Shown here: piece after piece, positions 49,800 to 56,120 of the stretch
Layout of the letters: each line of letters starts with the position of its first letter
How positions within the stretch are numbered: position 1 is the first letter of the stretch
Source: Promethearchaeota archaeon
Lineage (GTDB): Archaea; Asgardarchaeota; Lokiarchaeia; Sigyniarchaeales; SOKP01
Assembly (NCBI GenBank): GCA_016839555.1
Contig: JAEOUA010000006.1
Span: 224,001 to 288,000, forward strand
Length of the DNA stretch: 64,000 bases
Direction: 5' to 3'
Notes under the pieces: generated by a model
Told to the model about the DNA's origin: nothing
Seen by the model: the letters and a program-made list of their open reading frames with translations, nothing else
Databases searched by the model: none
Position numbers and translations under genes: made by a program

Positions 49800-49973
49800 A
49801 TTTTTAATTTTTTTTTTCTTTTTTTAAAAATAATCAAAAAATCTTTTCTCGGACTGTCTTTTTTAAGATTTAAGTGATTCTTGTGAATTATCTATAACTT
49901 ATATTATAAATCTTTTTAAACATCACTAATTTTAATAATATTAAAAATTAATGCTTGAAAAGCTGCAAAACTA

Positions 49974-50231
49974 GTGTCCATGTCTGAGGCAACATTTTTC
50001 TTATTTATTGCGGGTGCAAATGCATTAATATCTAAGAAAGCATTGAAGAATATTAAAAATAAATTCAAGGAGAAGCATTATTCTCTAATGGTTGTTGATA
50101 TTTTAGAAAATCCTCATGTTGCGGAATCAGTCGGAATTGTGGCGACTCCCTTATTAATGAGGACTTCCCCTGAACCCGTAAGAAGGTTTATAGGGGACTT
50201 TACTAATTCTGAACAAGATTTATTCATTTAA
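49974..50231 (+). CDS. kaiB: KaiB-family protein
   Basis: LFIAG...SKKALKNI...YSLMVVDILENPHVAE..GIVATPLL....PEPVRRFIGDF matches the KaiB pattern LYVAG..S.RAL...VIDVLKNPQLAE...ATPTL...P.PVRRIIGDL. Confidence 0.9.
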   Translation: MSMSEATFFLFIAGANALISKKALKNIKNKFKEKHYSLMVVDILENPHVAESVGIVATPLLMRTSPEPVRRFIGDFTNSEQDLFI

Positions 50232-50260
50232 ATTTTTACTTAAGCTCAATTGGTCTATTC

Positions 50261-51724
50261 ATGAAAAATATAGAAAAGATACCTAGTGGTATTGAAGGAT
50301 TTGATATCATTTCTATGGGGGGGATTCCTAAAAACAAAATGACCTTAATTTCTGGTACACCAGGGAGTGGTAAAACAATTTTTTGCACGCAATTTCTTGT
50401 TGGGGGAATTATCACTTCTAATGAGCCAGCTGTGTTTGTAACTTTTGAAGAATCTCCAGAGGATATCATAATTAATATGGAGCATTTCGGCTGGGATATT
50501 CAACACTATTTAGATGCTAGTCTCTGGAAATTTGTAGATGTTTCACCTCGAATAGATGAAGATTTTTTGATTAGGGGAAATTATGACCTCAGCGGCCTGA
50601 TAGTTCGAATTAAATCCGCAGTGGAAAAGATAAGAGCAAAACGAGTGGTTTTGGACTCTATAAGTGTTCTTTTTAATAAATATCCCGACACAGATATCAT
50701 AAGAAAGGAAATAATAAGGCTTAAATCTTTATTAAAATCTTTATATGTAACTTCGCTAATAACTTCGGAACGCTACGAAGAACTTGGAGGTGGAAGTTCT
50801 CATTATGATGTTCTTGATTTTGTCAGCGATAATGTGATTATCTTCAAAAATTCGATGTTTGAAGAATATCGCCGGCGAACGATCGAGATTATGAAATATC
50901 GGGGTGCCGCCCATAAAAAAGGACAACACTCGTTTACCATCAAAAATAATAAAGGAATAATAGTTATTTCTTTTGAAAGGAATCCTAATAAAAAAAAGCT
51001 TGAGCGAAAAAGGAAATCAACTGGAATAAAAACTTTAGACGAGATCACGGGTGGTGGATTTTTCGAAGGATCATCCGTTCTTGTTTCAGGTCAGACAGGC
51101 ACTGGAAAAACCCTTTTAGCGCTTTCAATGCTTGATGGGGCACTCCAACATGGAGAAAAATGCATATTGTTCAATTATGAAGAAAGTCGCGAACAAATCC
51201 TCCAGAAAGCTCGTACTTGGGACATAGATTTAATAGATGCTGAAAAAAATGGAAATCTTAAAATAATATGCATATATCCAGAATCACAAGGAATCGAGGA
51301 TCTTATTGTAGATATGAAATCGATAATACAAACTTTTAAACCAGAACGAATATTTATCGACAGTATTTCTGCTTTAGAACGTATTACCACCAAGCTTACG
51401 TTTAGACAATCGCTTATTAATCTCTTTCTCCTTGCGAAAGAAGAAAATATAATTGCAGTTTTTACCACTACGGCTCCCACTTTTTCTGGACCCTTTTTAG
51501 AGACAAAAAAACATGTTACTACCCTTTCTGATGCGATTCTCTTGCTAAGATATTTTGAGCGAGAAGGAGAAATGATTCGCGGCATCGCTATCATGAAAAT
51601 GAGAGATTCTGTCCATTCAAAGCGATTTTTAGAATATTCTATCGATAATAAAGGCTTTCATATCCTTTCGCCTATAGAGGATAATGCAGGAATATGTGAT
51701 TTTTTTAGAATAGAAAAAATGTAA
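50261..51724 (+). CDS. kaiC: double-domain KaiC ATPase/autokinase
   Basis: Two RecA-like domains (GTPGSGKT, GQTGTGKT), catalytic FEE/YEE, KYRG/KMR fingers, HVTTLSD phosphosite region. Confidence 0.92.
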   Translation: MKNIEKIPSGIEGFDIISMGGIPKNKMTLISGTPGSGKTIFCTQFLVGGIITSNEPAVFVTFEESPEDIIINMEHFGWDIQHYLDASLWKFVDVSPRIDEDFLIRGNYDLSGLIVRIKSAVEKIRAKRVVLDSISVLFNKYPDTDIIRKEIIRLKSLLKSLYVTSLITSERYEELGGGSSHYDVLDFVSDNVIIFKNSMFEEYRRRTIEIMKYRGAAHKKGQHSFTIKNNKGIIVISFERNPNKKKLERKRKSTGIKTLDEITGGGFFEGSSVLVSGQTGTGKTLLALSMLDGALQHGEKCILFNYEESREQILQKARTWDIDLIDAEKNGNLKIICIYPESQGIEDLIVDMKSIIQTFKPERIFIDSISALERITTKLTFRQSLINLFLLAKEENIIAVFTTTAPTFSGPFLETKKHVTTLSDAILLLRYFEREGEMIRGIAIMKMRDSVHSKRFLEYSIDNKGFHILSPIEDNAGICDFFRIEKM

Positions 51725-51792: not shown

Positions 51793-52398
51793 TTACCAAA
51801 TTTCGAATTTCTCATCAAGTTTGCCCTTAAATACTATTAAATATGGTATCAGTAAGTCCCATATGGATTGCAGGATATTAAAGACAAATGCAAATAAAAT
51901 CCATCCACCAATCCCCTCCATTGATCCAGTAATATATGGGTAAACAATAATATTTAATGGAATCATAATCCCTAATCTTAAGAGAATTGAAAGAACTCCT
52001 ACTATTGCGTATTTTTTAGGATTTTTTAGTTTTTCACTGCCATATCCATCCTTTTTATAAAGTTTTAGAATAATAGTGGGTCCAATAATCATGGGAATGG
52101 TAGCTGCGAATTTTAAGAAGGGTCCTAATGGTGCGAAAGGATCAAATGGCATTAATCCTAACATACCAATTATAGAGCATAAAATTCCTGCTAATGGTCC
52201 AAATAACTGAAAACATAATACCCATATTATTGAAACTGGATCAAAATATGCAAATCCTAAGGGATGTCGAGGTATAAACGCAGCTATAAAAGAAATAGCT
52301 ATTGATAATCCTCCGAATATTGCAGCCCCAACTATTTTCAAAGTTAATTGAGACTTAGCGCTCCTTACAGTTTCTATTTCTTGTGTTTCTTCACTCAA
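51793..52398 (-). CDS. ECF transporter S component
   Basis: AAIFGGLS...YFDPVSI...FGPLAG; 5-6 TM helices. Confidence 0.75.
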   Translation of the reverse strand: MSEETQEIETVRSAKSQLTLKIVGAAIFGGLSIAISFIAAFIPRHPLGFAYFDPVSIIWVLCFQLFGPLAGILCSIIGMLGLMPFDPFAPLGPFLKFAATIPMIIGPTIILKLYKKDGYGSEKLKNPKKYAIVGVLSILLRLGIMIPLNIIVYPYITGSMEGIGGWILFAFVFNILQSIWDLLIPYLIVFKGKLDEKFEIW

Positions 52399-53751: not shown

Positions 53752-54144
53752 ATGATTTTAAAAATCAATACAATAGATCAACTTGAGGATAATATCTCAA
53801 ATCATCTTGTCGCCGTGATTTTTTTTATAGAACAGGATTCTGATATGTGCAATGAATTGCTGGGAAGGATAAAGTTGGAATTGCTTCCTTATATAAAAGA
53901 GATAGATGGAGTATCCTTAATGAAAATTTCATTAGATTGCGAGATTGATTTTTTTGACCATTTTAATATTAATGAAATACCAAGTACTCTCATTTTTTAT
54001 AAGGGAAAACAAGTCTTATTTTTCGAGCAAGATAAGGAAGGAATTATGTATAAGACCGATAGATTTATTGGAAATGATCCAGACCTTCCGAATAAATTAT
54101 TTCGCTTTATCTTACATCTTTATAAGCGATTTGATAAGGAATAG
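53752..54144 (+). CDS. thioredoxin-fold protein lacking CxxC
   Basis: VIFF...SDMC, FNINEIPSTLIFYKG cis-Pro region. Confidence 0.7.
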   Translation: MILKINTIDQLEDNISNHLVAVIFFIEQDSDMCNELLGRIKLELLPYIKEIDGVSLMKISLDCEIDFFDHFNINEIPSTLIFYKGKQVLFFEQDKEGIMYKTDRFIGNDPDLPNKLFRFILHLYKRFDKE

Positions 54145-55271: not shown

Positions 55272-56120
55272 ATGAAGGATTCAGCGAAAGTTTTAATAGC
55301 TGGGCTCGATTATGCTGGTAAAACTTCTATTATGATCGCATTGAATGAACAGAAGGATTATATAGATAAGGTTCTAAATCTTGCAACAACCATCCGTGTC
55401 GACCATATAGAAATTAAGTTTCTTGGAGGATCTGTGATTTTCTGGGATATGGGGGGGCAAAAAGAATATAGAGAGTTATATAAAAAACGAAAAGAATTTT
55501 ATTTTGGGGATGCTGATATTTTAATTTATGCCATTGATATACAAGATGCTGAACGTTTTTCAGAGTCTCTAGATTATTTAGATACTATTTTTAATTATTT
55601 TCGTGAGGATGGAGAAATAATTCCTATAGTCGTTACCTTTCACAAATCAGATCCAGAAGTAATAGAAAATCCAGAAATAAAAAGAAATGTGGATGAATTA
55701 ACCGAGAAAATTAAGAAAAATTATCCAGATTTCGAGATTCTTTTCCAACAAACCTCCATTTATGATATTGTATCAATTATTAAGATGATTTCCTACGGAT
55801 TGGCTGTATTAAATGAGGACTTCTTTGAGTTATACAATTTACTTGAAGAATATTCAATGAATTTAGATTGTATAGGGTTATTTTTGCTTGATAGAAATGG
55901 AATGATAATTTGTAAGTATTTTAAGAATCAAATTGAGGAAGAAATTTATTCTAGATTAGAAAAATCTCTAAAACAACATATTTATGAACTTAAGGATAAG
56001 AAAGAAAAAGGAGAAGCGATTGAGCGTAAGATTTTTGAGGATGAAAATGAGATACGCTCTTATCTCCATCCCATAAAATATCGGGAAGAGGAATATTATG
56101 TATCAATTCTTCTTGATTAA
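55272..56120 (+). CDS. Asgard small GTPase (Arf/Rag-like) with C-terminal roadblock-like region
   Basis: GLDYAGKTS, WDMGGQ, HKSD, TSI; C-terminal CIGLFLLDRNGMII. Confidence 0.88.
   Translation: MKDSAKVLIAGLDYAGKTSIMIALNEQKDYIDKVLNLATTIRVDHIEIKFLGGSVIFWDMGGQKEYRELYKKRKEFYFGDADILIYAIDIQDAERFSESLDYLDTIFNYFREDGEIIPIVVTFHKSDPEVIENPEIKRNVDELTEKIKKNYPDFEILFQQTSIYDIVSIIKMISYGLAVLNEDFFELYNLLEEYSMNLDCIGLFLLDRNGMIICKYFKNQIEEEIYSRLEKSLKQHIYELKDKKEKGEAIERKIFEDENEIRSYLHPIKYREEEYYVSILLD

Follow-up and report, generated by a model that had tools for sequence, protein, structure and literature searches.

What role could a KaiB-KaiC pair play in an archaeon that has no KaiA? The question is raised by a 64,000-nucleotide stretch of a promethearchaeotal contig (GenBank JAEOUA010000006.1, positions 224,001 to 288,000 of the forward strand, assembly GCA_016839555.1; the whole stretch is referred to here as the window), in which a kaiB gene is followed by a gene for a two-domain KaiC. 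The simplest timers in biology may well be KaiBC pairs that operate in the absence of KaiA; to our knowledge, few of them have been studied and those known are bacterial. Public databases already label these lokiarchaeial (Loki) proteins KaiB and KaiC, and the literature searched, the coverage of which is incomplete and does not prove absence, yielded no publication that discusses an Asgard KaiBC. Our analysis points, with moderate confidence, to a functional two-gene KaiB-KaiC module that is kept in the host lineage and would act as a KaiA- and KaiA3-independent switch or hourglass of bacterial origin.

The first-pass annotation of the window, made from the DNA letters alone, had described an intact kaiB-kaiC pair without kaiA, and this description stood: both open reading frames (ORFs) lie where it placed them, with a 29-bp spacer between them, and the catalytic motifs are intact. 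The predicted KaiC contains two PF06745 domains (residues 7-237 and the second half of the protein) and scored 544 bits against the NCBIfam model NF006799, "circadian clock protein KaiC" (cut-off 408), and below the stricter TIGR02655 (467.8 against a cut-off of 546.25). Its full-length alignment to solved KaiC spanned residues 4-474; in the PDB, the best match was 8zn5 with 504 bits, followed by Synechococcus elongatus KaiC (417 bits) and Rhodobacter KaiC (252 bits).

We placed the KaiC motifs through alignment to solved KaiC structures and 21 homologues, and by position (Table 1). The Walker A motifs, catalytic glutamate pairs, and arginine fingers previously read in both domains were present by these means. 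The B-loop of the CI domain, which is the KaiB docking site of cyanobacterial KaiC, is one residue longer than in KaiC1; by analogy with the solved KaiB-CI complexes (5jwo), from which its KaiB-binding role is read, it may bind KaiB in the window protein as well. A Thr-Thr pair had been noticed at the position of Ser-431/Thr-432 of S. elongatus KaiC. Its placement was exact, but the pair is peculiar to this genome, because every other Loki-clade KaiC in the alignment, an 83%-identical relative among them, has the canonical Ser-Thr. In the K-M-R-D motif of the CII fingers, Asp stands for the Gly of bacterial KaiC, as it does in all Loki f1 members checked except one, which has Gly.

The C-terminal end of the window KaiC falls 13-21 residues short of bacterial KaiC3-type proteins and lacks their S-E-[VIM]-[DE]-R-x-x-x-L-F motif. 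In a comparison of tails, all nine Loki-family KaiCs were without the C-terminal motif that six KaiA3-linked bacterial KaiCs conserve. Because KaiA docks on the tail of KaiC1, the lost motif was, by analogy, probably the docking site of KaiA3. The first-pass annotation had taken the short tail to suggest KaiA-independent autophosphorylation. The tail is indeed short and fits independence from a KaiA-type partner, but it does not show autophosphorylation. Synechocystis KaiC3, the nearest relative studied so far, loses its phosphate groups when KaiA3 is missing and does not regain them (PMC11372060).

The activators themselves were sought in the whole genome, which comprises 3.74 Mb in 12 contigs, is 92% complete with 6% estimated contamination, and holds one two-domain KaiC. 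The KaiA family PF07688 had no match in it, with the S. elongatus control matching as expected, and no SasA-type kinase was found, the sole KaiB-domain match in the genome being kaiB itself (RpaA and CikA were not searched). The search for kaiA- and sasA-like genes that had been suggested thus came back empty. On sequence comparison, the absent activator that matters is KaiA3, beyond KaiA alone. At the ten bacterial loci inspected, a receiver-domain gene of ∼290 codons lies directly upstream of kaiB; in all, 79 bacterial loci yielded 63 KaiA3-like ORFs, so that most bacterial relatives carry kaiA3. In the Crocosphaera KaiA3-like protein, the C-terminal half matched KaiA and RsbU_N faintly, which fits the KaiA3 of Kobler et al. 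(PMC11372060). A profile of the KaiA3 C-terminal domain found no match in the window genome or in four sister genomes of its family (G276, G163, G272, and G164). The positive control, a match with E 3e-53 right upstream of kaiB in the sister genome G128, indicates that the profile works.

KaiB matched Pfam PF07689 with 60.9 bits (cut-off 27), Thermosynechococcus elongatus KaiB in the PDB with 54.9 bits, and Legionella KaiB with 39 bits. In the alignment, the protein stops at ...DLFI and thus lacks both the acidic tail and the Gly/Asp residues of the cyanobacterial fold switch, whereas bacterial KaiB continues with ...LLGLDL... and its tail. KaiBs of the window's subclade have 83 residues, and the other Loki KaiBs likewise lack the LLGLDL segment. 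In cyanobacterial KaiB, mutating residues of this segment locks the protein in the binding-competent fold. A model of KaiB made with AlphaFold2 (predicted local distance difference test score (pLDDT) 80.8, 23-sequence alignment) has the order β-α-β-α-β-β. It aligned at full length with fold-switched or thioredoxin-like KaiB (5jyt, 5jwo, 4kun, and 8fwj; 79-85 columns, template modeling (TM) scores of 0.56-0.60) and with ground-state KaiB in the N-terminal 55-63 columns only. The model weakly suggests that the window KaiB may have little or no slow fold switch, which would favor a fast switch or hourglass over a delay-based clock.

Both are plus-strand genes, placed midway along a lokiarchaeial (Promethearchaeota) contig of 604 kb. 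The Asgard host proposed earlier agrees with the flanking genes, which encode archaeal TFIIB, RFC subunits, and a RagA-like GTPase, and with the source names of the closest KaiC and KaiB homologues (Promethearchaeota and Candidatus Lokiarchaeota). The G+C content of third codon positions (GC3) is 0.30 for kaiB and 0.28 for kaiC, compared with 0.23-0.28 for neighboring genes. For KaiC, the ratio of nonsynonymous to synonymous substitution rates (dN/dS) against the 83%-identical relative was 0.16, at dS 0.57; for KaiB, dN/dS was 0.18-0.34. Both genes are under purifying selection. This relative, examined on a 4.4-kb metagenome contig (L155), has the same three genes 3′ of kaiC. Neither window gene contains a frameshift, and all catalytic residues are kept. 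A module under selection in Asgard archaea of dark sediments argues for the sensing of an energy or stress state, not of daylight, and by analogy with characterized systems the pair is most likely a phosphorylation switch or hourglass that reports the energy state.

To place the pair among Asgard archaea (a phylum-level group), 400 genomes were surveyed. Strong KaiB matches occurred in 10 genomes besides the window's own, a close two-domain KaiC in 7 of the 400, and a KaiB-linked KaiC of any form in 9; every KaiC found adjoins a KaiB, and the pairing of kaiB with kaiC is kept in all Loki relatives examined. All carriers belong to the window genome's class, read as Lokiarchaeia, and most to the same family. 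The survey, which had been proposed as a check, found the pair in more than one genome, but the earlier emphasis on a lineage close to eukaryotes did not stand, as the pair is neither Asgard-wide nor relevant to eukaryotes. How eukaryotic clocks arose is not illuminated by genes that occur in few genomes of one Asgard class and are probably bacterial in source. Gene and species relationships conflict: KaiC of the congener G276 is 51% identical to that of the window, but KaiCs of two other congeners are 68-71% identical, and G277 and G274 share synteny with one another, not with the window. The survey also turned up a single-domain, CI-like KaiC of 243 residues (L054:8281-9012, minus strand), 47% identical to the window CI and encoded directly 3′ of a kaiB (L054:9002-9271, minus strand). 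No CII follows, the next gene being on the opposite strand, and a 96%-identical copy lies at L055:3129-3860 (minus strand). Schmelling and colleagues reported, in 2017, KaiB only alongside full-length KaiC.

The nearest non-Asgard relatives of the window KaiC are bacterial (44-48% identity; Chloroflexota, Thermodesulfobacteriota, Planctomycetota, Cyanobacteria, and others). For three cyanobacteria that encode a pair of KaiC copies, it scored 435-452 bits to the kaiA-unlinked copy versus 395-405 bits to the kaiA-linked KaiC1; two KaiC2-like outgroups scored 255 and 179 bits. We built a careful tree of KaiC (IQ-TREE, LG+C20, 44 rows) and a quick one of 104 rows. In the former, the 14 included Loki-family KaiCs form one clade with support 100/100 and a stem of 0.95 substitutions per site; in the latter, all 19 Loki KaiCs form one clade with a Shimodaira-Hasegawa-like approximate likelihood ratio test (SH-aLRT) value of 100. 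The KaiC1 clade is also supported at 100/100 in the 44-row tree. Both long-stemmed clades, Loki and KaiC1, emerge from among bacterial KaiC3-type sequences with short branches, which themselves form an unresolved bush. The quick tree agrees with this, and the Loki clade stands far from KaiC2. The phylogeny earlier proposed as a check thus set KaiC apart from KaiC2, with scores favoring the KaiC3 type, but left its place relative to KaiC3 in a polytomy. An old transfer from bacteria to Lokiarchaeia is the most parsimonious reading, the direction being suggested by a gene that is widespread in bacteria and rare in Asgard genomes. G128, a member of another lokiarchaeial family, carries a tandem kaiA3-kaiB-kaiC-kaiB-kaiC cluster (L053; contig 1, 463-468 kb of a 605-kb contig). 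Both of its KaiCs fall among bacteria, at 72-75% identity to Chloroflexota KaiC, and on these sequences the G128 cluster is a separate, recent bacterial acquisition.

We propose that an ancestor in the host's family of Lokiarchaeia received a bacterial KaiC3-type kaiA3-kaiB-kaiC cluster. The lineage would then have lost kaiA3 together with the C-terminal KaiC peptide conserved wherever bacteria pair KaiC with kaiA3, and KaiB would have been shortened to end before the residues controlling the cyanobacterial fold switch. By analogy with characterized proteins, KaiC would form a hexamer in which the CI ring hydrolyzes ATP slowly and the CII ring phosphorylates and dephosphorylates Thr-420/Thr-421. 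Without a KaiA-type partner, the phosphorylation balance would be set by intrinsic properties, the ATP/ADP ratio, and temperature. The short KaiB, predicted from the model to be in or near the thioredoxin-like binding-competent fold, would bind the CI B-loop of one phospho-state and push KaiC back; the outcome would be an hourglass that can be reset, or a switch set by the energy state, rather than a clock that sustains itself. The Loki clade would then be a natural experiment in which the activator gene, the likely KaiC docking peptide, and the slow-switching end of KaiB have gone together, and its pair could reveal how a KaiC3-type protein behaves when reduced to two parts.

Several points weigh against this proposal. 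Since Synechocystis KaiC3 is hypophosphorylated without KaiA3, a KaiA3-less descendant might be locked in one state, unless the loss of the tail freed it. KaiB scored far below the equivalog cut-offs (TIGR02654, 51.4 against 145.3; NF006798, 53.6 against 110), and its model was built from 23 sequences and reached only TM ∼0.6 to known structures. In the KaiC tree, the backbone collapses into a polytomy, and no node gives the donor or the direction of transfer. Derivation from KaiC3-type bacteria is drawn from similarity scores, branch lengths, and rarity among Asgard genomes, not from a resolved node, and the Loki sequences deviate in amino acid composition, which can distort placement. At 92% completeness, an unlinked partner could sit in the missing part of the genome.

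Alternatively, the pair could serve stress or energy homeostasis and keep no time. KaiC would then be an ATPase that regulates stress tolerance according to its phosphorylation, as reported for the KaiBC homologues of Legionella and Pseudomonas, and KaiB would either not bind KaiC or merely tune the ATPase. We regard this as unlikely, although it deserves serious weight. The host lives without light and has a single KaiB-domain match and hence no SasA-like kinase; the KaiB model is as close to Legionella KaiB (4kun) as to fold-switched KaiB; and the upstream neighbors, a cation P-type ATPase gene and a dnaK/clpB cluster, fit such a role. In Legionella, as a review summarizes, KaiC increases resistance to stress independently of any interaction with KaiB (PMC10671191). 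In Lokiarchaeia, however, kaiB is tied to kaiC in every lineage and the CI B-loop is conserved, a constancy that argues for a physical partnership of the two proteins. The stress ATPase also overlaps with the switch or hourglass that we favor, as an energy-state switch is a stress module too.

How the proposed switch or hourglass might reach an output is hinted at by sister lineages, since no output gene is encoded next to kaiBC in the window genome. The first-pass annotation had reported no sensor kinase beside the pair, and a scan of the genome agreed: among 22 HisKA matches, 21 of them above the Pfam cut-off, none lies within ∼30 kb of the pair, and the nearest lies ∼34 kb before the window. 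This is true of the window but not of sister Loki lineages, in which kinases and response regulators flank kaiBC. In G276, G163, G128, G272, and G164, the pair sits among PAS-HisKA-HATPase kinases, single receivers, an ArsR-type regulator, a RagA/Arf-like GTPase, and proteins of ∼300 residues that we call REC-X. The latter consist of a receiver domain, a long helix, and an unnamed C-terminal X domain with a W-D-D-x-x-G-P motif; the X-domain family is small, with 136 clusters in a set of 1.84 billion representatives. Although a genome has no more than 3-6 X genes, four of the five sister genomes (G163, G272, G164 with two loci, and G128) have 1-2 of these less than 8 kb from kaiB. In two sister lineages, REC-X is directly upstream of kaiB, the slot of bacterial kaiA3. 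In the window genome, the X genes number three, two for REC-X and one for TPR-X; they are on other contigs, unlinked to kaiBC. Among side observations, the tandem cluster of G128 is surrounded by kinase genes and a single gene for REC-X. In G164, an orphan kaiB of the window subtype (∼65% identical; L056:1942-2193, minus strand; contig 344 of G164) has no kaiC downstream and comes directly after genes for REC-X, a receiver, a Rag/Arf-like GTPase, and an ArsR-type regulator.

A model of the window genome's own REC-X (pLDDT 88.8) gave the X domain a mixed α/β order, β-β-α-β-β-β-α-α. Judged by the order of predicted elements only, we take this to be the arrangement of longin domains. The X domain had no match in Pfam (E up to 10), in a profile search of PDB sequences, or in the ESM Atlas, and in a structure search with the full REC-X model, receiver domains filled the list. 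For the REC-X ORF on contig 7, standard starts put its beginning in the middle of the receiver domain; the open frame has 322 residues. Candidate output partners in the window genome are its 21 HisKA-type kinases and two REC-X proteins. The module may conceivably be wired into an Asgard chain that runs from a histidine kinase through REC-X, with a longin-like X domain, to a Rag/Arf-like small GTPase, with the window genome using the unlinked REC-X and GTPase pair of contig 6, but we consider this wiring doubtful. If true, a bacterial phospho-timer or energy sensor would control GTPase signaling of the eukaryotic type. The sister lineages, in which kaiBC has members of a new response-regulator family and small GTPases as neighbors, thus give the search for the output a starting point that can be tested.

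The same proteins are central to the idea of a complete oscillator with an unrecognizable activator, in which an unrelated protein encoded elsewhere, for example REC-X, replaces KaiA or KaiA3. REC-X opens with a receiver domain as KaiA3 does, occurs within 8 kb of kaiB or kaiBC in four sister genomes that have only 3-6 such genes each, and is represented in the window genome by two REC-X and one TPR-X. As a diverged KaiA3, however, it was rejected, since hhalign returned a probability of 0.4% with the KaiA3 C-terminal domain, the X domain is predicted to be mixed α/β and not a helical bundle, and the receiver part is no closer to KaiA3 receivers than to others. With a KaiC that lacks the C-terminal peptide used by KaiA-type activators, and no REC-X linked to kaiBC in the window's own subclade, we find a complete oscillator quite improbable. 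The first-pass annotation had cautioned that the pair might be a contaminant or a recent transfer into a single genome. That it is bacterial DNA binned in error, a very recent transfer of this kind without host function, or a remnant in decay is hardly credible despite its patchiness (7 of 400 genomes with a close two-domain KaiC) and a bin contamination of 6%, because a position in the middle of a long contig between archaeal TFIIB, RFC, and RagA-like GTPase genes, host-like GC3, low dN/dS, synteny shared with the 83% relative, unbroken frames with complete catalytic residues, and at least 14 related Loki sequences in a deep clade make contamination, recent transfer, and decay all unlikely.

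At the level of the locus, kaiB and kaiC are, from their arrangement, probably one transcription unit; their spacer has no strong ribosome-binding site. The kaiB ORF is present as first described, but its start was shifted: public gene calls begin at the ATG at 49980, the probable start, and not at the GTG at 49974, which would give 85 residues. TATA-like stretches ∼30-50 nucleotides 5′ of the ATG make the upstream region a candidate archaeal promoter, and the kaiB mRNA may be leaderless or short-leadered. The gene 5′ of kaiB encodes the cation P-type ATPase. On the 3′ side, the convergent membrane protein gives only a sub-threshold match to the S component of ECF transporters, and its position is kept in L155. 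Farther on, a Gtr1/RagA-like GTPase is 34-36% identical to the GTPases flanking kaiBC in G163, G272, and G164. Its nearness to kaiC may be chance; the genes in between face other directions, and small GTPase genes occur at several loci in this genome and its relatives. A defense-system role was also considered and rejected, as PADLOC gave partial P-loop matches only.

Table 1. Features of the kaiBC locus and X-family genes of the same genome. Positions are those of the window unless a locus (L153, L154) is named.
Feature	Position	Strand	Remark
kaiB upstream region	49800-49979	+	AT-rich, intergenic; oligo-T run 3′ of P-type ATPase gene; read from sequence
kaiB	49980-50231	+	83 aa; ATG start, as in public gene calls
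kaiB-kaiC spacer	50232-50260	+	29 bp
kaiC	50261-51724	+	487 aa; two RecA-like domains, CI and CII
CI Walker A	50354-50377	+	GTPGSGKT, residues 32-39
CI catalytic Glu pair	50447-50452	+	E63/E64; matches first catalytic EE pair of solved KaiC
CI B-loop region	50543-50590	+	Residues 95-110, ends G-N-Y-D-L; from alignment
CI Lys/Arg finger pair	50894-50905	+	K212/R214; invariant alignment columns
CII Walker A	51089-51112	+	GQTGTGKT, residues 277-284
CII catalytic Glu pair	51179-51184	+	E307/E308
T415	51503-51505	+	Aligned to T426
Putative phosphosite pair	51518-51523	+	T420/T421; HVTTLSD versus HISTITD; aligned to S431/T432 of S. elongatus KaiC
CII Lys/Arg finger pair	51596-51607	+	K446/R448 in K-M-R-D
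KaiC C-terminal end	51689-51721	+	GICDFFRIEKM, short
Membrane protein ORF	51793-52398	-	201 aa; convergent with kaiC
ORF without Pfam match	53752-54144	+	130 aa; position kept in 83% relative (L155:3772-4164)
Gtr1/RagA-like GTPase	55272-56120	+	282 aa, C-terminal extension; 3.5 kb 3′ of kaiC
Own REC-X	L154:7149-8051	-	Contig 6, ∼196-198 kb; adjoins RagA/Arf-like GTPase
RagA/Arf-like GTPase	L154:8397-8933	-	Adjoins own REC-X
Own X-family gene (REC-X)	L153:10261-10980	+	Contig 7
Own X-family gene	L153:5318-7399	-	Contig 7

Compared with known Kai systems, the window pair is set apart from the KaiABC circadian clock, which needs kaiA, by a genome without a PF07688 match. It resembles Legionella pneumophila KaiBC (4kun) in its short thioredoxin-like KaiB (fold match with TM 0.58) and its non-photosynthetic host, but the two Legionella proteins reportedly do not interact (PMC10671191), and the Legionella KaiB is the weaker sequence match to the window KaiB (39 versus 55 bits). 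The KaiC2-type pair of Rhodobacter (Cereibacter) sphaeroides (Pitsawong et al. 2023, PMC10076222; PDB entries 8dba and 8fwj) is likewise KaiA-independent; its KaiB of 92 residues binds in the thioredoxin-like fold, and the pair is a model for an ATP/ADP-driven hourglass. It belongs to another KaiC subfamily, however, as the window KaiC scored 252 bits to 8dba versus 417-504 bits to KaiC1 and ancestral KaiC. The window KaiC has 487 residues versus 568 for the 8dba chain and thus no C-terminal extension. In R. sphaeroides, this extension reportedly forms a coiled coil. The best solved-structure match, 8ZN5, is the reconstructed ancestor KaiC-β, which shows no oscillation and a temperature-dependent ATPase (Mukaiyama et al. 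2025, PMC12081879). We found 49% identity to a 518-residue synthetic-construct KaiC taken as the same sequence. KaiC-β is a synthetic inferred sequence that keeps a long C-terminal tail, whereas the window KaiC is short-tailed.

Two systems frame the proposed reduction. In KaiA3-KaiB3-KaiC3 of Synechocystis sp. PCC 6803 and its homologues in Chroococcales, Chloroflexota, and others (Kobler et al. 2024, PMC11372060), kaiB lies directly upstream of a two-domain kaiC, as in the window, and the top similarity scores of the window KaiC go to the KaiA-unlinked cyanobacterial copy; the CI B-loop that exceeds that of KaiC1 by one residue is a further shared feature. The window differs in lacking kaiA3 and the KaiC tail motif, in a KaiB of 83 versus ∼94-100 residues without the G-L-D-L segment, and in K-M-R-D, which nearly all Loki-clade members have instead of K-M-R-G. 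Prochlorococcus KaiBC has lost kaiA and is described as an hourglass (cited in PMC11372060). It is a three-gene Kai system secondarily reduced to kaiBC through loss of the activator, as the window pair would be; its starting point was KaiA with KaiC1, that of the window pair would be KaiA3 with a KaiC3-like protein, in a non-photosynthetic host with no evident daily light reset.

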